A stretch of DNA of 57,171 bases from Bacteroidales bacterium UBA6340 (GTDB taxonomy: Bacteria > Bacteroidota > Bacteroidia > Bacteroidales > Paludibacteraceae). Each line of letters starts with the position of its first letter. Position 1 is the stretch's first letter. The position numbers and the translations under genes were made by a program. This document shows, piece by piece, positions 2,850-49,868 of this stretch. The DNA is taken from assembly GCA_002440265.1 (NCBI GenBank), contig DJSG01000031.1, positions 1-57,171 of the forward strand. Direction: 5' to 3'. The notes below the pieces were generated by a model that ran no database searches, had not been told where the DNA came from, and was given only the letters and a program-made list of their open reading frames with translations.

Positions 2850-3914
2850 ATGAAGAGATTTATTTTATTGGCGACTATGTTCGCCGTTGTATTGGGCGTG
2901 AGTGCCCAACGTCGTATGCAGGTGTGGGAAGGAAACACCTACATGCAGTTTTTCACCACCAATGTGGATAGTGTAACATTCTTGTCGTTCCCTGAGGGTA
3001 TTCTGCAGGAGTGCGAAGAGATACACGATACTATCATCAAGACCATCACGGTGCGCGATACCGTTACTCTCACTGTGCGTGATACTATCACAAAGACGAT
3101 AACCGTGCACGATACCATTACCCAAATCGTGAAAGATACAGTGTACATCCAGTATTGTCCCGATACCGTGTCGGATAAGCCTCTGGTCGGTGCGTTCTCG
3201 GTAAGTGCTACCAAACAGGTGCGTTTCTCTCGTGGCAATCTGCAGTACACACAAAGCACACAGACATGGTCGTTTGCCAAACACCAATACGATATGATAG
3301 GAGAAGCAAATGTAAGTGGTAGCAGTTTGGCTGACAAAATAGACTTATTTGGTTGGAGCGGTGATTTTATTAGTAGTACCCCTTGGGGAATAAGCGCTTC
3401 CACAATTTACACTGTATATCGGGGTAACTTTGTTGATTGGGGTACAAATATCGGTGATGGAAAAACATGGTACACATTGACTGATGAAGAATGGAAGTAT
3501 TTACTTCACCATAATGGTGGTTGTGGTGTAGCACGTATTAATCTCAACACAGATGGTACAGAATATGTCAATGGTCTTATCCTACTTCCTGACACATGGA
3601 CTTGCCCAGAGGGAATGACTTTCAATGGTGGCGTTTCCAAAACAAATAGCATACAGGCTTATGCTGATCACCAAACGTTCACTCGTGCTGATTGGCAAAA
3701 GTTAGAATCTGCGGGTGCAGTTTTCCTGCCTGCTTCTGGTCACCGTGACGGTTCTAACGTGAATGATGTGCAGGACTATAGTCTCTATTGGTCTGCAACG
3801 CCTGACGGAAGAGACCGTGCATACTTCCTGTACTTCCGCTCATCTGAGGTGTACACAGATTTTCTTCTCCTTCGCTATGTTGGACGAGCAGTCCGTCTCG
3901 TCCAAGATTTATGA
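2850..3914 (+). CDS. secreted/lipoprotein with DT[IV]T repeats and a FISUMP/DUF1566-like C-terminal domain
   Basis: Signal peptide MKRFILLATMFAVVLGVSAQ. Repeats TITVRDTVTLTVRDTITKTITVHDTITQIVKDTV. The tail FSRGNLQY...WYTLTDEEWKYLL...LPASGHRDG...YWSAT...GRAVRLVQD fits the FISUMP-type pattern as I remember it. Confidence 0.7.
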   Translation: MKRFILLATMFAVVLGVSAQRRMQVWEGNTYMQFFTTNVDSVTFLSFPEGILQECEEIHDTIIKTITVRDTVTLTVRDTITKTITVHDTITQIVKDTVYIQYCPDTVSDKPLVGAFSVSATKQVRFSRGNLQYTQSTQTWSFAKHQYDMIGEANVSGSSLADKIDLFGWSGDFISSTPWGISASTIYTVYRGNFVDWGTNIGDGKTWYTLTDEEWKYLLHHNGGCGVARINLNTDGTEYVNGLILLPDTWTCPEGMTFNGGVSKTNSIQAYADHQTFTRADWQKLESAGAVFLPASGHRDGSNVNDVQDYSLYWSATPDGRDRAYFLYFRSSEVYTDFLLLRYVGRAVRLVQDL

Positions 3915-3963
3915 TTAAGTTTTCTTTTATTCTCATTATGATAATTTATAAACACATCAAATT

Positions 3964-5028
3964 ATGAATATATCAATTTTATTAGGAGCGGGATTTTCAG
4001 TAGCCGCAGGGTTTCCCACTGCAAAACAATTATCAGAGAATATTGTGAATGCATCAAGTCTGAATTTCTGTATATACGCTGGTAATTTATGCGAACGACC
4101 AGAGTCTATTCCTTACCGTAAAGTTTTAATGAAACCTTTCGAAAACTTGTTAGCCCTCATCCATTTTTATTCGTATCTTCATTGTAACCATTTCGATTAT
4201 GAGCATTTTTATGACTTTTATTGGAAAATACGGGGCATATCCGACCTTTTTGCAGGAGAAGAATTGGATATGAGGATAAAGGAAATCAATGACTTATATC
4301 AAAAATTAGTATGTTTTTATTTGGATAAAGCCGATAAAATGGCTAAACAATATACTGAATATTACGAACATTTCAATTCTTTTGTGCGAGATTCTGCACA
4401 GAGGGATATGGTTTATATCCATACCTTGAACCATGATACATTGTTGGAACAAATGTTAGACGGGCAATATAGCGACGGTTTTTCCACAACAGGTTCACTG
4501 TTTCATTGCAACGAGCATGATATTCAAATGTTTTCCGAGAGTAACTATCAAGGCAATATACTACTTTACAAGTTACATGGCAGTTTAGATAGATACCTTT
4601 ATACCTACCAAAATGACTTTTCCAAACATAAATACATCAAGATTCCCCTGCAAAGTGGAATTGATATAGAGGACATAAGAAATTTGAATGATATAGATAA
4701 ACCATGCTTACAATGCCTAATTCCAGATTTTTTGACAGGAGCAACGACAAAGATACGACGATATAAAGAACCTTTTTATGCGTCTATGTTTGAATGCTTT
4801 GCGAAAAATCTTCAAAATTCTGATACGATATACATTATTGGGTATGGAGGTCATGATAATGAAATCAATAAATATTTATTAACGCATGCAAGAAGTAAGC
4901 CAATCTACATTATAGACCCTTTTCCAAATAATGAGTTACAGAGATTATCCGACAAGTTAGGAACTAATTCGCGTATCATTCCTAAAACTATAAAAGAATG
5001 CGATGTTGCTTTGCTACATACCTCTTAA
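3964..5028 (+). CDS. SIR2-like protein (SIR2_2/PF13289-type), stand-alone
   Basis: Ordered motifs ILLGAGFSVAAGFPTAKQL, TLNHDTLLE, LYKLHGSLD and IYIIGYGGHDNEINKYL match the remembered SIR2_2 signature (GAGxS..G.P, TxNxD, LHGS, iGYS..D). The gene is about 32-37% GC on hand-counted lines. Confidence 0.8.
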   Translation: MNISILLGAGFSVAAGFPTAKQLSENIVNASSLNFCIYAGNLCERPESIPYRKVLMKPFENLLALIHFYSYLHCNHFDYEHFYDFYWKIRGISDLFAGEELDMRIKEINDLYQKLVCFYLDKADKMAKQYTEYYEHFNSFVRDSAQRDMVYIHTLNHDTLLEQMLDGQYSDGFSTTGSLFHCNEHDIQMFSESNYQGNILLYKLHGSLDRYLYTYQNDFSKHKYIKIPLQSGIDIEDIRNLNDIDKPCLQCLIPDFLTGATTKIRRYKEPFYASMFECFAKNLQNSDTIYIIGYGGHDNEINKYLLTHARSKPIYIIDPFPNNELQRLSDKLGTNSRIIPKTIKECDVALLHTS

Positions 5029-5104: not shown

Positions 5105-5141
5105 AGACTGTCTAACAAGTTGTATTAGGCAGTCTTTTTTA
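5105..5141 (+). terminator. rho-independent terminator after the SIR2-like gene
   Basis: A 10-bp stem, agactgtcta / taggcagtct (one G-U pair), with an 11-nt loop, followed by tttttt. Confidence 0.7.
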
Positions 5142-5689
5142 TGATGCCATTTGTGATTGTAGTTTATATTAAGTTATTACTGTCTGGTAAAAGTGTTGTT
5201 ACAATGGTACGCCAGATATTGATGTACTATTATCGACTTATATGTCTTCCATGTAGCTATAGAATGGCTCTAAAATGAGTGATTAAATGGAAAAATATAT
5301 ATCTACAGCAATCCGCAACTTGCGCTTTTTGCGTAGGAGGGCTCGCTTTTGCAAAAATACATACCAATATGCCCTTTTATGGGCATTTGGAAGGGACTTT
5401 TCTTCTTTGGGCTGTGTTTACCGGACAGCAATAATATTAAGTTATCAGCAAAAGCAACTAACTATGGGAACAAAGTCGTGCTAACATTTCTATAAAATAA
5501 CGGAGCACTCGCATATAAATTAAAATGCAACTTTTGTTAAGATAGCCATTTTCGAAAAAGTGTAGGGAAAGTGGTGAAAAAATGAAGATTTTTTGGTATT
5601 GAGTGTCAGCAGGTTACAAGCCAAAAATGCAAAATGCACCATTTTGGCGAAAAAACGAAAATAAATTTGGATTTTGGACGATTTTGTAT

Positions 5690-5893: not shown

Positions 5894-6556
5894 ATGACAA
5901 ACGATTTTCTCAAGTTCGCCGTAGCGAACGGACTCAATTCCATGCACGTGGAGCAGACCATACAGGCGTCTGCCAACTATATCAGCCCGTCCATATTGGA
6001 AGAGCGGCAACTGAATGTCACGCAGATGGACGTGTTCTCGCGTCTGATGATGGACCGCATCATCTTCCTCGGCACCGAGGTCAACGACTACACAGCCAAC
6101 GTGATTCAAGCCCAACTGCTGTACTTGGACTCGGCTGACTCGGACAAAGACATACACATATACCTCAATTCCCCCGGCGGTTCCGTATATGCGGGCTTGG
6201 GTATCTACGACACCATGCAGTTTGTGCGCTCGCGCGTAGCCACGATATGCACGGGTATGGCGGCATCCATGGGTGCGGTACTGCTCGTAGCGGGCGAGAA
6301 AGGTATGCGTGCCGCGCTGCCCCACAGCCGCGTGATGATACATCAGCCGTTGGGAGGCATACAGGGACAGGCTTCGGACATCGAGATTACCGCCAAGGAA
6401 ATCCTCAAACTCAAGGACGAACTATACCAGATTATCTCCGACCATTCGGGGCAGAGCATGGAGCGTATCCGTCACGATGCCGACCGCGACTACTGGATGA
6501 AAGCCAACGAAGCCCTCGAGTATGGTATGATAGACAAAGTGTACGAGAGGAAGTAA
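5894..6556 (+). CDS. clpP: ATP-dependent Clp protease proteolytic subunit
   Basis: [20 protein letters not shown] and MIHQPLGG catalytic-region motifs. It is followed by clpX. Confidence 0.97.
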
Positions 6557-6768
6557 GGGGGTGTTCTTTTAATTGCTTTTTGAGTGATTTTTGAGTTTTT
6601 TGGTTAGTAGATGCGCGACTTGAGCAAAGGAGCAATGCGGGCATTGTGACTGAGCGAAAGCCTCGCAGATACAAGCAAAAAACAAAAAGCACCAAAAAAG
6701 TGTTACAACACCCTCACATTTGTAAAATTTTAAGTTAAACGGGGAATTAATAGAACACCCCCTATAAT

Positions 6769-16063: not shown

Positions 16064-16071
16064 CAAAGGTA
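16064..16071 (-). promoter_or_regulatory. -7 box TAccTTTG (tRNA-Pro promoter)
   Basis: The minus strand reads aaaaaagcagtacctttgcaaccc, the strongest local consensus. Confidence 0.6.
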
Positions 16072-16118
16072 CTGCTTTTTTATCACGTGTGCAAATAAAA
16101 TCGCACTACTCTGCAAAT

Positions 16119-21230: not shown

Positions 21231-22403
21231 TTAGTTTTTTCCGTCCATAAGCCGTTGCATGAACGCCCATGGTTTGCCGTTCTCAATATGCGTTTTCCTG
21301 CCGATGCGAGTAAGAATACGGTAGAGACGGCTGTTGTTGCGTATGCTGCTGCGCCCTACGGCATAGAAGATGAAGGTGGTAAGTATGCCAGCAGCCATCA
21401 CAATATAGAGTTGCACTTCGAGGCTTGCGCCCAAGAGGTAACTCATCCACCAGCAGAAGACTATCAGCAAGTTGGTGAGAATGAGTGCAGTAGCAGTACC
21501 GATATGCGAGAAACCCATGTCAAGAAGCAGGTGGTGAAGGTGCGTCTTGTCGGGCGCGAAAGGCGATACGCCCCGTCGTATCCGGCTGCACATGACACGC
21601 AAGGTGTCAAAGACCGGTATGCACAGGACAGCCAAGCAAAAGGCTACGTAACAGAGATTATGCGCAGAAGGCACGGCAACAGGGGAGCCGTCCTGCAAGA
21701 TAAAGAACACCATGCTGCTCATCACCGCGCCCAACATCAATGTGCCGCCGTCGCCAATATACATCTTGGTCCTACAGCCGAACACGTTATGGCAGAAGAA
21801 AGGCATTATCGCCCCAATGCAGATGAGCATAAAACAACACAATGCGTACTCGCCTACATATGCAAAGAGTGCGGCAAACAGGGCACACGCCACCATGCAG
21901 AACCCCGATGAATAGCCATCGACACCGTCTATCATATTGATACTGTTGATGATGCCTACACCCGCAATCACGCTAAGCGGTATGCCCACCCACAGCGGCA
22001 ATGCGGCAATGCCCCATAGTCCATGGAGACTGATAGTCATCATGTGGCTGCCCCAGACGAAACATCCAACGATTGCCACCTCCATACACATCCGTACAGA
22101 GGCAGAAAGGTCGCGGATATCGTCGATTACCCCCAACAGCAACATCACCAGAAGATAGGCAAACAGCCAAGGAGAGACGTCCCAATGCAAAAGGAACAGA
22201 CTGATAATCAGCGGTATTGACAGTCCGAAGGCAATCGTAACCCCACCCAATGCAGGTACCGGATACCGCTGCAACTTGCGCTTGGCAGGGTAATCCACAA
22301 TCTTGTGCCGCGTAGCAAACCTAAGCATGAACGGATATACCGCCCATGTTATCAGCAATGCCAACACGAAGCATAGCAATATGATGAGTATGTTTGTTGT
22401 CAC
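21231..22403 (-). CDS. glycosyltransferase family 4 (MraY/WecA-like polyprenyl-phosphate sugar-1-P transferase)
   Basis: Multi-pass membrane protein with VIDDIRDL and NMIDGVDG motifs. Confidence 0.85.
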   Translation of the reverse strand: MTTNILIILLCFVLALLITWAVYPFMLRFATRHKIVDYPAKRKLQRYPVPALGGVTIAFGLSIPLIISLFLLHWDVSPWLFAYLLVMLLLGVIDDIRDLSASVRMCMEVAIVGCFVWGSHMMTISLHGLWGIAALPLWVGIPLSVIAGVGIINSINMIDGVDGYSSGFCMVACALFAALFAYVGEYALCCFMLICIGAIMPFFCHNVFGCRTKMYIGDGGTLMLGAVMSSMVFFILQDGSPVAVPSAHNLCYVAFCLAVLCIPVFDTLRVMCSRIRRGVSPFAPDKTHLHHLLLDMGFSHIGTATALILTNLLIVFCWWMSYLLGASLEVQLYIVMAAGILTTFIFYAVGRSSIRNNSRLYRILTRIGRKTHIENGKPWAFMQRLMDGKN

Positions 22404-23148: not shown

Positions 23149-23254
23149 GGTGAGCAGGTGAGCGGGTGAGCAGATGTTTCTATATATACACACGTGTGCG
23201 CGGGCGGGTGTGCATATACATAAAAGTATCTGCTCACCCGCTCACCTGCTCACC
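23149..23254. repeat. 27-bp perfect inverted repeat (3 GTGAGCRG octamers per arm) with a 52-nt spacer
   Basis: ggtgagcaggtgagcgggtgagcagat (23149-23175) is the reverse complement of atctgctcacccgctcacctgctcacc (23228-23254). The spacer contains the palindrome cacacgtgtg (23189-23198). Confidence 0.95.
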
Positions 23255-23419: not shown

Positions 23420-24595
23420 ATGATAGCCCCTCAACTATATGCCTATATGGAGTCGCTGTTGGCGCAGACTGACAGTGCTTTTCACCGTTACCTCTATTCT
23501 TCTATTGACTGGCAAGCCCGCCTGATTGGCATTGTGGGCCCACGTGGTGTGGGTAAGACTACCATGGTATTACAGTACATACGCGAGCACCCGGCAGAGC
23601 AAAAAGCCCTATATGTCTCTGCTGATAATGCCTATTTTGCTACACATTCACTCATCGAGTTAGCGGACGAGTGGGCAAAAGATATGGGGCAACGCCTCGT
23701 GATTGATGAGGTGCACAAGTACCCAGATTGGTCACGTGAACTCAAACAGATATATGATACACACCCGGATATACATATTGTCTTTACCGGTTCTTCCATA
23801 TTGGATATTGCCAAGGGTAGTGCCGATCTCAGCCGCCGTGCATTGATGTACACGCTGCAAGGGCTGTCTTTTCGCGAGTATCTGCAACTCTTTCACCATA
23901 TCCATACGCCCGCAGTTTCGCTGCCTGACATCTTGGCAAACAAGGCTGCCGTAGAAGGTGTGCTGCACCCTTTGGCGTATTTTCGCCCATATCTGGAGGA
24001 AGGATACTATCCATTTGCCATAGAGGGCAACTTTGTGCCGCGTATGCAAGCGGTCATCAGCCAGACCATAGAGTCAGATATCGCCCAGTTTGTGGATATG
24101 AAAGCCGCTACGGCGCGCAAACTGAAGAAGATGCTGGCTATTGTGGCTACTTTGGCTCCATTCAAACCTAATGCAGACAGTCTTGCAACCGAGATAGGCA
24201 TTAGCCGTAACAATGTGGCGGATTATCTGTTGTTATTAGAGCGGGCGCAGATGGTTGGGCAGTTGCGTGATGATACTGATGGCATGCGCGGTTTTGGGAA
24301 AGTGGAAAAAGTGTATTTGGACAACACCAATCTGATGTATGTCCTCAATGGCACCAATATCAATATCGGCAATGTGCGGGAGACATTCTTCTACAACCAA
24401 ATGCGTGTGCAGCAAGAGGTGGTTGGTTCGCGCCTATCTGACTTTACCATAGGTGACTGCACCTTTGAGGTAGGCGGGCACAAAAAAGGCAAGAAGCAAA
24501 TAGAGCAAGTTGCCAACGGCTTTGTGGTCCGAGATGATATTGAGACCGGCTATGGCAATATCATTCCCCTTTGGGCTTTCGGGCTAAATTACTAA
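23420..24595 (+). CDS. AAA family ATPase with a DUF4143-type C-terminal region
   Basis: Walker A GPRGVGKTT, Walker B LVIDEVH, and the overall AAA_14 + DUF4143 architecture as I remember it. Confidence 0.8.
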   Translation: MIAPQLYAYMESLLAQTDSAFHRYLYSSIDWQARLIGIVGPRGVGKTTMVLQYIREHPAEQKALYVSADNAYFATHSLIELADEWAKDMGQRLVIDEVHKYPDWSRELKQIYDTHPDIHIVFTGSSILDIAKGSADLSRRALMYTLQGLSFREYLQLFHHIHTPAVSLPDILANKAAVEGVLHPLAYFRPYLEEGYYPFAIEGNFVPRMQAVISQTIESDIAQFVDMKAATARKLKKMLAIVATLAPFKPNADSLATEIGISRNNVADYLLLLERAQMVGQLRDDTDGMRGFGKVEKVYLDNTNLMYVLNGTNINIGNVRETFFYNQMRVQQEVVGSRLSDFTIGDCTFEVGGHKKGKKQIEQVANGFVVRDDIETGYGNIIPLWAFGLNY

Positions 24596-34859: not shown

Positions 34860-34934
34860 GACGACGCGGCTCGCGTCATCAATAAAAAACGAGCGATACT
34901 CTGAAATTAATGGTTAATTACATGGTAATTAATG
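34860..34934. repeat. composite 3'-end element: GC hairpin plus AATTA-rich block
   Basis: gggggacgacgcg-gct-cgcgtcatc (one mismatch), followed by gaaattaatggttaattacatggtaattaatg. Confidence 0.8.
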
Positions 34935-35549
34935 TTTTATATGTCTGATTCTACGACCATTATTTTGGATATGGGCGGCGTGCTGATGCAGCACAACATG
35001 CCCGAATGTCTGTCCCGTTTCCGCCACTTGCTGGGTGAGGAACAGACAGACCGTCTCTTGGGTCTCGCCTCCGACGGCGAAGGCACTGCCGACAGTCTCA
35101 TGGAGCAGTTCGAGCGCGGACTTATCGCTGCCGACGCTTTCATCGGCACCCTCTTGCGTTATGCCCGTCCTGGCACCACGCCGCAAGACATCATCAACGC
35201 TTGGAACGCTATGCACGGCGGCATACCTGACGACCGTCTTGCCCTCCTGCACCGGTGGCACGACCGCGGATACCGCCTTTTCCTGCTCAGCAACAACAAC
35301 CAACTCCACTGGCACGACATCTGCTCCCGCTACGACATGTCCGTCTTCGAACACTGTTTCCTCTCACACCTCCTGCACCTCAGCAAACCCGACCCGCGCA
35401 TATACGCCACCGTCCAAGCGTACCTCACGCAGCACCATTGCCCCACACCCTACCGCTTCGTGGACGACCTCCCCGTCAATCTCCTCCCCGCACAAGCCCT
35501 TGGCTGGCACACCTACACCACCCTCACCGACCTCCAACAGGATTTATAG
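34932..35549 (+). CDS. HAD family hydrolase
   Basis: Motif I IILDMGGVLM. LLSNNN motif. C-terminal FVDD. Confidence 0.8.
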   Translation: MFYMSDSTTIILDMGGVLMQHNMPECLSRFRHLLGEEQTDRLLGLASDGEGTADSLMEQFERGLIAADAFIGTLLRYARPGTTPQDIINAWNAMHGGIPDDRLALLHRWHDRGYRLFLLSNNNQLHWHDICSRYDMSVFEHCFLSHLLHLSKPDPRIYATVQAYLTQHHCPTPYRFVDDLPVNLLPAQALGWHTYTTLTDLQQDL

Positions 35550-35671
35550 ACCTTTCTTTATAGTCCTTTCCTTGAACATATTTCTCGTGGCAACCGCATA
35601 AAACACGAACACATTTACGTACCCATTTACGTACTATGTAATAATCAAATTATTGGGGCTGTAAAATAATT

Positions 35672-35713
35672 GAGGCTGTCTAACAAGTGTAGGCAGCCTC
35701 TTATTTTGTTTTG
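35672..35713 (+). terminator. rho-independent terminator after the HAD gene
   Basis: Stem gaggctgtct/aggcagcctc, loop aacaagtgt, then ttattttgttttg. Confidence 0.7.
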
Positions 35714-35730
35714 TGGACAACGTTTTTGGG

Positions 35731-35751
35731 GGACGACGCGTCCCGCGTCGT
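35731..35751. repeat. REP-like GC hairpin
   Basis: ggggg-gacgacgcg-tcc-cgcgtcgtc. Confidence 0.9.
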
Positions 35752-35803
35752 CAAATGCAATCTGGGGTACTCTCTTCGCCCTGCGGGTTTCATGGTGCAA
35801 AAT

Positions 35804-35970
35804 AAACGACCCTTTTTTTGAACCCACCCCACAGCATAGTGCGTCCTAAGCAATTAACAAAAAAATAACATGCATAAGTTTGTGTGTATCAGTAAAAAGC
35901 AGTACCTTTGCACCGATGTTGAATGTGAAGGGGTAGGAAACAAAAAACGGGTTCAAAAAAAGGGTCGTTT
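35804..35970. promoter_or_regulatory. candidate invertible promoter: 22-bp perfect inverted repeats flanking a consensus promoter
   Basis: aaacgaccctttttttgaaccc (35804-35825) is the reverse complement of gggttcaaaaaaagggtcgttt (35949-35970). The 123-bp interior holds TTTG (35879-35882) and TACCTTTG (35903-35910), 20 nt apart. Confidence 0.5.
35903..35910 (+). promoter_or_regulatory. -7 box TAccTTTG inside the inverted-repeat-bounded segment
   Basis: gtaaaaagcagtacctttgcaccg matches the tRNA-promoter consensus. Confidence 0.6.
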
Positions 35971-36110
35971 TTCGTGTACCATACCTCATCGCATACGGAG
36001 ACATCCATTATGGCAATGTTGTAATTGATAACGATACTGTGATATTGTGCAACTCAATGAGTTGACAAATAATATAAACCAAATAACTAACCAAATTAAA
36101 TTTATCTATT

Positions 36111-37820
36111 ATGAAAAGATTATCTATCTTTTTCGCCGCGCTCTTAGTGAGCGTAGGTAGTATCTTTGCAGCAGAAGAGGTCTATAAGACTGCATTATTT
36201 GGCAAAGATTACAACTCAAAAGGAGTAAGTAGTTACTCCAATAGTTGGTCAAGCACAACTAATAAATTTGTTGTTGATATTGTTAACTTTAACAACAATA
36301 ACAACGGTTGGGATTATATCAAATGTGGCAGTAAAAAGAATACTTCAGTAGCAACTATTACCACAAAAGCCGCTATTGACAAAGCCATCACAAAAGTGGT
36401 TGTTACTTTGGATAACGTTACTGTTGAAAATTTGAACTCCACCACTTTGACTGTAGCATCAGATGCTGCTTTTACGCAAGATGTACAGACCATCACAGTT
36501 ACTGCTGCTACGGGCGCGCTACCGTATGTAGTAACAACCCCGACTAAGAACATGTTCTACAAACTAACCTATGATTGTAAGAAAGGTACTAGTAATGGCA
36601 TTGTACAGATTTCCAAGGTTGAGTACTATGCAAGTGCAGCCGAAATCCCTGCTACCGCCATTGCTTTGGACAAGCAGACCATCACATTGGACAAGGGTGC
36701 TACCGAGCAACTGACCGCAACACTCACTCCTGCTGATGCTACCACTGAAGTAGTATGGGCTACCGAGAATGCAGAGGTGGCTACCGTAGAGAAGGGCTTG
36801 GTTACTGCAGTGGGTGTAGGTACCACCAACATCGTGGCTACCGTTACCCCCGCAGAGGGCACTACCTACACGGCTAAGTGCGCCGTTACCGTAGTGGCTG
36901 CTCCTGACGCTCCTGTATTCACCGTTACCGACCCTGTATTCGAGGGTACGATGAACGTGGCTATCACCGCAGCAGAAGGTATGGCTATCTACTACACCAC
37001 CAATGGTGCAGAACCGACTATCGAGTCCACCAAATACGAGGCTCCTTTTGCTATCACCGCTACCACCACCGTCAAGGCTATTGCTTATGATGCTAACATC
37101 AAGAAAGCCAGTGTGGCTGCCGAGATGACTTACACCAAGGCTATGACCTGCGCCGATGCCAATGCCGCTGCTGATGGTGATGTTATCTTCTTGAACGAAG
37201 TAACCGTGGTTTATGCTGATGGTGCTAATATCTATGTGGCAGACGCTACCGGTACCACACTCGTTTTCTCGTGGGACTTTAAGGATAAGTTCAAAGCAGG
37301 TCAGGTGGTAAAAGGTATTAAGGGCACGATGGCTATCTTCAACGGACTCCCTGAGATTAAGCCGAGTGTGGATATTGCAGACCTCACCATTACCGATGGC
37401 GGCACCATTCCCGACCCTGAAGCAGTTACTGCAGTTCCGACTATGGCTGACATCAACAAGTATGTGCGTTTGGACAAGGTAACGGTATCCGCCGCCACAT
37501 GGAAAAGCAGCGATAAGGATCCTGAGCCTCGTACACTGGTCGGCAAGTTCCTTGGAGAAGATATCACGCTCTACAACACCTTCAAGATTGACCTGACTTT
37601 TGCGGCTGGAGACTACGAGGTTATCGGTTTTGTAACATGCTACTATAGCAAACCCCAAATCGCAGTAGTCAGTGCCAAACCGGCACAAAGTGTTGGCACA
37701 TCAGTAGTAATGGACGGCATCCGCGCAGATGTTGCAGTAGAGAAGATTGTCCGCAACGGTCAAGTATTTATCATCCGCGACGGCAATATCTACAACCTGA
37801 TGGGCCAAGTCGTTGAGTAA
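36111..37820 (+). CDS. cell-surface protein with Big_2 (Ig-like) and chitobiase-C/FN3-like domains and a conserved C-terminal tail
   Basis: Signal peptide MKRLSIFFAALLVSVGSIFA. Big_2-like IALDKQTITLDKGATEQLTATLTPADATTEVVWATENAEVATV. GMAIYYTTNGAEPT..STKY. Tail VRNGQVFIIRDGNIYNLMGQVVE. Confidence 0.8.
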   Translation: MKRLSIFFAALLVSVGSIFAAEEVYKTALFGKDYNSKGVSSYSNSWSSTTNKFVVDIVNFNNNNNGWDYIKCGSKKNTSVATITTKAAIDKAITKVVVTLDNVTVENLNSTTLTVASDAAFTQDVQTITVTAATGALPYVVTTPTKNMFYKLTYDCKKGTSNGIVQISKVEYYASAAEIPATAIALDKQTITLDKGATEQLTATLTPADATTEVVWATENAEVATVEKGLVTAVGVGTTNIVATVTPAEGTTYTAKCAVTVVAAPDAPVFTVTDPVFEGTMNVAITAAEGMAIYYTTNGAEPTIESTKYEAPFAITATTTVKAIAYDANIKKASVAAEMTYTKAMTCADANAAADGDVIFLNEVTVVYADGANIYVADATGTTLVFSWDFKDKFKAGQVVKGIKGTMAIFNGLPEIKPSVDIADLTITDGGTIPDPEAVTAVPTMADINKYVRLDKVTVSAATWKSSDKDPEPRTLVGKFLGEDITLYNTFKIDLTFAAGDYEVIGFVTCYYSKPQIAVVSAKPAQSVGTSVVMDGIRADVAVEKIVRNGQVFIIRDGNIYNLMGQVVE

Positions 37821-37831
37821 TCTATTATGTG

Positions 37832-37941
37832 GGGACGACGCGTTCCGCGTCGTCCCACAAACATAGTCCCCATAATTAACGACCCATTAACGGCTATTAA
37901 CGGAGAATAATTACATGGTCAATTACACGGATAATTACATG
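37832..37941. repeat. composite 3'-end element: 11-bp GC hairpin plus AATTA-rich block
   Basis: gggacgacgcg-ttc-cgcgtcgtccc (37832-37856), then cataattaacgacccattaacggctattaacgg...atggtcaattacacgg. Confidence 0.9.
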
Positions 37942-38110
37942 TTTTTCAATGTTTTATGGTCATGTATGGGCATTAGAGGAGAACTAATATGTCTCCATCT
38001 TGGAGACACCTCGCTGTGAAGCGCGGCATCCAAAGTTATTTTTTGGATAATAGTTTGAGCCCCGCAAGGGGGAGAGGCTGCCTCGTGGTTGGGGCAGTCT
38101 CTTTTTATGG

Positions 38111-49799: not shown

Positions 49800-49860
49800 A
49801 AGAAAATGCATTTTTCGTTATTTTTTTTGCCAAACATTTGGTGGGTTCGAAAAAAAGCAG

Positions 49861-49868
49861 TACCTTTG
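49861..49868 (+). promoter_or_regulatory. -7 box TAccTTTG (tRNA cluster promoter)
   Basis: catTTTGgtgggttcgaaaaaaagcagTACCTTTGcaccc, with 20-nt spacing to the -33 TTTG. Confidence 0.6.

Follow-up and report, generated by a model that had tools for sequence, protein, structure and literature searches.

The window, i.e., the whole stretch of 57,171 nucleotides that was analysed, originates from a Bacteroidales bacterium and is identical to roughly positions 54,594-111,764 of contig k119_158444 in the ENA assembly ERZ27300193. At the locus considered here, a gene for a HAD-like hydrolase is followed on the same strand by a terminator-like hairpin, by a short segment enclosed by an inverted repeat and by a gene for a surface protein (Table 1). 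The surface protein carries a signal-peptide-like N-terminus, a variable N-terminal domain, Big_2 and Fn3_assoc/CHB_HEX_C_1 domains and a conserved C-terminal region of about 230 aa, and the earlier description of its gene, made from the sequence alone, as coding for a secreted, Big_2/FN3-like product agrees with these domain matches. A T9SS sorting domain that was suspected by eye at the C-terminus found no support in Pfam or NCBIfam.

Table 1. Position of the features at the locus and of the related sites in the sister species (contig L011).
Feature	Position	Strand	Description
HAD-like hydrolase gene	34932-35549	+	assigned by Pfam; fixed left neighbour
Terminator-like hairpin	35672-35700	+	after the HAD gene; in the transcription path when the segment is flipped
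Left recombinase-type site	35794-35825	+	32 bp; GGTGCAAAATAAACGACCCTTTTTTTGAACCC; includes the perfect arm 35804-35825
Crossover interval	35804-35815, mirrored at 35959-35970		12 bp; AAACGACCCTTT; delimited by the arm SNP and the outer mismatches
Invertible segment	35826-35948		123 bp; ON orientation here, reverse-complemented in other assemblies
Bacteroidota-type promoter motif	35879-35910	+	-33 TTTG (35879-35882), 20-nt spacer, -7 TACCTTTG (35903-35910)
Right recombinase-type site	35949-35980	-	32 bp, inverted; reverse complement GGTACACGAAAAACGACCCTTTTTTTGAACCC; includes the perfect arm 35949-35970
Surface-protein gene	36111-37820	+	569 aa
L011 sites 1 to 3	L011:4746-4777, 5124-5155, 6312-6343		site 1, GGTATCAAAGAAAGGACCCTTTATTTGATACC; site 2 (reverse complement), GGTATCAAAAAACCGACCCTTTATTTGATACC; site 3, GGTATCAAAAAACCGACCGTTTCTTTGATCCC; recur in L065-L074

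The enclosed segment contains a promoter motif of the Bacteroidota type. The sequence-only reading had described it as TTTG-N20-TACCTTTG and as sharing its consensus with tRNA genes, and both statements were confirmed, as the motif is present on the plus strand and its extended form, TTTG..AAAAAGCAGTACCTTTGCA, also occurs upstream of tRNA-Gly (49837-49868, plus strand) and tRNA-Pro (16064-16095, minus strand). Transcription would be expected to start near position 35917, a few nucleotides downstream of the -7 element. No other TAnnTTTG sequence was found on the plus strand between 35911 and 36110, i.e., up to the ATG at 36111, or on the opposite strand of the segment. Judged by motif match, the promoter faces a gene in one orientation only. 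The reading had also placed a terminator of the HAD gene in the path of the flipped promoter, which is where the terminator-like hairpin was located.

The interval between the HAD and RecQ genes (35550-38110 in the window, compared with L077-L096) differs between strains whose YggS-like protein is identical. In some relatives it contains the inverted-repeat element together with a surface-protein gene, in others Flavodoxin_4 and AraC genes follow HAD, and in relatives that are about 92% identical HAD (or YggS) is followed directly by RecQ. Relatives such as L088 and L089 do not have the 32-bp site. By RecQ similarity, the nearest genomes are metagenome-assembled genomes (MAGs) of uncultured Bacteroidales from the human gut (Hadza, SRR1747047), and named Paludibacteraceae follow at a greater distance. 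The MAG contig that comes closest (L010) shows 96.8% nucleotide identity across the region from GlnS to RecQ and loses synteny right after RecQ. Three alleles of the surface protein were found, of 569 aa (window), 525 aa and 471 aa (P0004). Among strains that carry the element, the signal peptide is kept and the C-terminal region of about 230 aa is identical, and the N-terminal domains are unrelated, a pattern which is consistent with diversifying selection on an exposed domain. A paralogue with 84% identity (P0002), located in a YidC context in L007-L009, lacks the 32-bp site. At the locus of this paralogue, an unrelated 22-bp inverted repeat (95%; L007:1632-1653 and 1962-1983) surrounds 308 nt approximately 1 kb upstream of the gene, and this 308-nt segment holds GTGTCAAAAATGGAGCGA-type repeats.

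Several other features of the window are recorded here as separate observations. A perfect 19-bp inverted repeat (AGACCTCCCCAACCCCTCC; 2570-2588 and 2754-2772) surrounds 165 nt just upstream of an unannotated gene (2850-3914), in DNA with many CCCCTCC/GGAGGGG hairpins and short CTAATA-like repeats; this pair could be another invertible or repeat element. A second 19-bp inverted repeat (95%; 6556-6574 and 6745-6763), which brackets the 170-nt intergenic region between clpP and clpX, showed no inversion in three contigs, which comprise two independent samples beyond that of the window. A large palindrome with 45-nt arms (87%), a 16-nt loop and GGTGAGC-like heptamer repeats is found at 23149-23254, between the divergent genes 21231-22403 (minus strand) and 23420-24595 (plus strand). 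The latter codes for an AAA_14/DUF4143 ATPase with a match to PDC-S01, a candidate defence family of PADLOC (E = 3e-25). A SIR2-domain protein (3964-5028) matches the PADLOC Aga_SIR2 and SIR2 defence models (best E = 1.7e-16) and is preceded by a 354-aa protein without a family match (window 2850-5028), and the pair may represent a small anti-phage defence module.

The inverted repeat and its 32-bp sites

The perfect 22-bp inverted repeat around 123 bp that had been noticed by eye was recovered at exactly its original coordinates, with AAACGACCCTTTTTTTGAACCC in the left arm and its exact reverse complement in the right arm. Imperfect similarity does continue outside both arms, over 12 nt per arm rather than the approximately 15 nt initially claimed, and the arms including this outer part comprise 34 nt with 88% complementarity (35792-35825 and 35949-35982). 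Two or more matches to the 22-mer with up to three mismatches were obtained in none of 100 dinucleotide-preserving shuffles of the window, and no further copies were found in the window when the same number of mismatches was allowed.

Each arm forms part of a 32-bp site, which is unchanged or carries one SNP in all ten related loci. The left site exhibits an internal dyad symmetry, GGTGCAAAA ... TTTTGAACC, about a central AC dinucleotide at 35809-35810. By inspection, each of five aligned sites, two from the window and three from the sister-species contig L011 described below, is near-palindromic (GGTATCAAA ... TTTGATACC) with an asymmetric centre, and the AC dinucleotide at site positions 16-17 is invariant in all five. 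This layout is that of a complete recombinase core site, in which two inverted binding half-sites flank an asymmetric crossover region that gives direction. It is compatible with a serine invertase, given a symmetry that reaches the central dinucleotide as in hix, and equally well with a tyrosine recombinase with 12-bp arms and an 8-bp spacer (12-8-12).

The distribution of the repeat is narrow. An exact 20-mer scan of GTDB genomes, with one genome per species, gave no match, and the inverton locus is either absent from the GTDB species representative or unassembled in it. The same scan of a metagenome collection returned the orthologous locus (L001) and one chance match in a coding sequence (L002) and nothing else. 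Together with the single copy in the window, these counts speak against a generic dispersed repeat, which had been named beforehand as a finding that would refute an inverton. The site strings had no match in the supplements of PMC11892184, and a degenerate site pattern matched viral contigs once, by chance, in a coding sequence.

Orientation of the segment in public assemblies

Loci were gathered via the exact proteins of the flanking genes and via members of the 90% cluster of the surface protein. The evidence on orientation consists of consensus contigs, with one orientation per sample, from ten samples; L005, L079 and L092 represent the same contig as the window and were counted once with it. 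Five samples carry the segment in the ON orientation (the window, ERZ27300193; L003, ERZ27300191, partial; L004, SRR1747025; L001, ERZ808252; L096, ERZ27300225, partial) and five in the OFF orientation (L076, ERZ26859173; L082, ERZ27300203; L078, ERZ26858496; L080, JGI 3300014039; L087, ERZ27300220). The flipped form predicted by the sequence-only reading, which had taken the window to be ON, is therefore present in public assemblies, and the outcome that it had regarded as fatal, many samples without a flipped orientation, is not what was found.

The clearest example is a 68-kb contig (L076, NODE_310 of ERZ26859173, 15.6x), in which the 123 bp are the exact reverse complement of the window sequence with 0 mismatches and the flanks match the window with 0 mismatches over 200 nt on each side. 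The breakpoints of the inversion fall inside the arms and the flanks are unchanged. Two haplotypes of the segment were distinguished, one of 123 bp, identical to that of the window, and one of 124 bp with several SNPs. The 123-bp haplotype is exactly reverse-complemented in L076 and L082, and the 124-bp haplotype is reverse-complemented in L078, L080 and L087 and ON in L001 and L096. Each segment haplotype thus occurs in both orientations, as do both left-flank types, which leads to the conclusion that the inversion has taken place repeatedly among strains that are about 99% identical.

In the 124-bp haplotype, one arm has a T-to-A substitution at the position that corresponds to 35816, and this serves as a natural genetic marker for the site of exchange. 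The A is found in the left arm of the ON contigs (L001, L096) and in the right arm of the OFF contigs (L078, L080, L087), so that it always lies beside the same end of the segment, i.e., it moves with the segment. The outer arm mismatches (35803/35971 and beyond) stay with the flanks. Because the arm SNP moves and the outer mismatches are fixed, strand exchange is placed within the 12 bp of AAACGACCCTTT. An arm SNP that travels with the segment is as would be expected for conservative exchange inside the arms, and a narrowing of the exchange region to 12 bp is seldom available without experiments.

In three samples the contig ends at or inside the element (L001:2063, L003:3986, L096:4798). L001, a contig with a coverage of only 2.6x, stops precisely at the outermost base of the right arm, and the ends of L003 and L096 fall within the segment. 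Such ends are what mixed orientations within a sample would cause, and they are taken as soft evidence and not as proof. A de Bruijn branching position was considered as the cause of the ends of the k119 contigs L003 and L096 and was rejected, as these ends miss the predicted base; therefore, only the arm-boundary end of L001 is used, and softly.

Related sites in a sister species

A scan guided by RecQ synteny identified no orthologous inverton but did lead to the sites in L011. A mismatch-tolerant search of all collected loci located three related sites just beyond the end of the RecQ gene in L011, a contig of a Hadza MAG whose RecQ is 87% identical. By our own calculation, about 0.05 matches to the 22-mer with up to four mismatches would be expected by chance in the 678 kb searched, and three such matches, lying within 1.6 kb of one another at the syntenic position, are therefore not attributed to chance. 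The arm variant of the L001 type, TTTATTTGA, equals the L011 consensus at that position, which therefore tolerates T or A.

Site 3 falls within the reading frame that encodes a large surface protein (...GIKKPTVSLIP...), which comprises 1792 aa in full-length contigs such as L065, and site 2 is found shortly before the end of a divergent ORF of 191 aa that includes a signal peptide (...GIKKPTLYLIPKFGKNKGLE*). Both sites are read in the same frame (GIKKPT..LIP) and lie within two head-to-head N-terminal cassettes, the modules of which are otherwise unrelated by eye. Inversion of the DNA between sites 2 and 3 at the central AC, performed in silico, yielded an uninterrupted ORF in which the second module is joined to the constant part of the protein. 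This shufflon-like design argues for the site family being a genuine target of recombination. A promoter-like sequence, TAACTTTG, was also observed at L011:4659-4666.

The flipped arrangement was not found in the species of L011, where at least 21 contigs share one arrangement; in ten loci drawn from these contigs, the sites, their spacing and the arrangement are identical. Similarly, no protein that fuses cassette B to the constant region was found in a database of 5.8 billion proteins, and the same C-terminal tail is present in all seven members of the cluster of the L011 surface protein. If the L011 system inverts at all, inversion is rare or strongly biased. Since a single arrangement is seen in at least 21 contigs of the sister species, recombination at sites of this family is not observed in every case.

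Interpretation and relation to known systems

Taken together, these observations make it very probable that positions 35826-35948 constitute a promoter inverton which is located between two inverted 32-bp recombinase-type sites and controls the surface-protein gene. In this model, the two sites would be paired and strands exchanged inside their shared AAACGACCCTTT core by a site-specific recombinase encoded elsewhere, whereupon the segment would flip. The segment would hold the sole canonical promoter ahead of the gene. In the ON orientation, this promoter would read through the right site into the surface-protein gene, and in the OFF orientation it would point back at the terminator of the HAD gene, leaving the surface-protein gene without a canonical promoter. 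The activity of the promoter and the ON/OFF effect on expression are predicted from the motif and its position, and reversibility of the switch within a clone is presumed.

As the sequence-only reading had stated, no recombinase gene lies in the window: a Pfam scan of its 43 ORFs identified neither a Resolvase nor a Phage_integrase domain, and none was found in the neighbourhoods seen in L100 and L065. Therefore, a candidate invertase would act in trans, as that reading had supposed, from a gene at least 21-35 kb away.

Rare inversions that became fixed between strains, through accidental homologous or illegitimate recombination at short repeats and without a programmed switch, would agree with the one orientation per assembled sample, with an invertase not being found nearby and with the invariance of the homologous sites in the L011 species. 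A 22-bp repeat is, however, a very poor substrate for RecA-type recombination, and neither the nearly equal numbers of both orientations (5:5) among strains that are roughly 99% identical nor their occurrence in each segment haplotype and flank type would be expected from occasional accidents. Since the arms also exhibit the dyad-symmetric layout of recombinase sites, conserved in another species, we regard fixed inversions as improbable. Still further from the evidence is the view that the flipped forms are assembly artefacts of the inverted repeat, which we consider extremely unlikely. De Bruijn assemblers can mis-orient segments between repeats longer than k, but the perfect 22-bp repeat is far below the final k (k119 and k141 in record names; SPAdes contigs), the five OFF contigs were assembled from different samples with at least three pipelines, and the SNPs of the arm and of the segment are consistently inverted together.

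Insertion upstream of the gene of a MITE-like element, bounded by 34-bp terminal inverted repeats and carrying a promoter that reads outward, would match the overall length of 191 bp, the terminal inverted repeats and the variability of the intergenic region between strains. The scarcity of copies outlined above (one in the window, no exact copies in GTDB, and the orthologous locus plus one chance coding match in metagenomes) nevertheless speaks against it, the flanks (GGGTTTC and ACCTCAT) show no target-site duplication, and a flip in place with unchanged flanks is not expected of such an element, which makes this origin very unlikely. We assign a similarly slight chance to the idea that the 32-bp palindromes serve a dimeric transcription factor as operators, through which it would loop or repress the promoter, with the inversions being incidental. 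Dyad symmetry in each site and the position of the promoter between both sites would suit such operators. Operators, however, can do without an identical asymmetric core that is inverted between the two sites, and neither the inversions, which are precise, have recurred and break within the sites, nor the in-frame copies in two coding cassettes of L011 would be explained.

With a promoter inverton as the preferred reading, a broader proposal can be made, which we put forward as a tentative and rather doubtful one. The 32-bp site with its central AC may form a previously undescribed pair of recombinase sites in uncultured gut Bacteroidales (Paludibacteraceae-like), on which one enzyme, acting in trans from a distant gene, would flip the promoter in the window species and swap the N-terminus of the 1792-aa protein in frame in the sister species. 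Through the same enzyme, surface-protein genes between HAD and RecQ might also be gained, lost and rearranged. In any case, the conserved site provides a concrete search pattern (GGTNNCAAANAAANSGACCSTTTNTTTGANNCC) for other members of the regulon and, by co-occurrence, for the invertase. The locus adds a phase-variable surface protein, recognized from public assemblies, for an uncultured human-gut Bacteroidales lineage of non-industrial populations (Hadza-type samples). It fits the established picture in which gut Bacteroidales use inversion of DNA to vary their surface proteins, with phages or immunity as the probable source of pressure.

Among known systems, the “fin” invertible promoters of polysaccharide loci in B. 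fragilis, flipped by the serine invertase Mpi/FinA, are similar in several respects (Krinos 2001; Coyne 2003; Patrick 2003; as cited in PMC12632263, PMC3090145, PMC8375218). There, too, a short promoter segment between inverted repeats precedes genes for surface structures, the invertase reaches distant sites in trans and the promoter is of the Bacteroidota -7/-33 type. The window core AAACGACCCT is similar to the Mpi repeat consensus ARACGTTCGTN, as quoted in PMC8375218, and agrees with it at 7/10 positions, short of the consensus itself. The repeat of the B. intestinalis CPS locus from the same study (GTTCGTTTAA, reverse complement TTAAACGAAC) agrees with the window sequence ATAAACGACC at 8/10 positions (PMC8375218). 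The centre of the core, however, is AC in the window and TT in the fin system. Moreover, a single Ig-like/Fn3 surface protein would be regulated here, whereas fin promoters precede polysaccharide operons with upxY/upxZ, and the host of the window is an uncultured Paludibacteraceae-like lineage, unlike B. fragilis. No homologue of Mpi was identified among the window ORFs and in the neighbouring DNA seen.

A second system of B. fragilis comprises surface-protein invertons which are flipped by tyrosine recombinases (Tsr; Weinacht 2004, cited in PMC12632263). Here as there, promoter inversion would control outer-surface proteins, and a reading of the window sites as 12-bp arms with an 8-bp asymmetric spacer is possible. 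Tsr genes usually adjoin their invertible regions, whereas no recombinase is located within 35 kb upstream or 21 kb downstream of the segment described here. In the Hin/hix system of Salmonella and in phage Gin/Cin, a segment that bears a promoter or genes likewise lies between sites that consist of two inverted half-sites and a central asymmetric dinucleotide. The L011 half-site GGTATCAAAAAACC resembles TTATCAAAAACC, which we take to be the hix half-site. Nevertheless, hix sites are 26 bp long (12+2+12) as compared to 32 bp here, which places the present sites outside the hix family, and Hin is encoded inside its segment and requires an enhancer and Fis, whereas the 123 bp of the window contain no gene and no invertase was identified next to them.

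Gene-altering programmed inversions and shufflons (Milman 2023, PMC9881135) and within-gene inversions in Bacteroidales (PMC12632263) are closest to the in-frame cassettes of L011, which are alike in design; the window sites, in contrast, are non-coding and only the promoter flips. Promoter invertons of surface genes form a class that is very well known from gut Bacteroidales (PMC12632263, PMC11892184). Measured against this class, the inverton described here is real but ordinary, its mechanism is standard and routine in gut Bacteroidales, and the current understanding of how such switches work is unchanged by it. What goes beyond the standard case is that natural variation allowed the crossover to be mapped, that the 32-bp sites form a family and that this family may serve a second purpose, N-terminal domain swapping, in a sister species.
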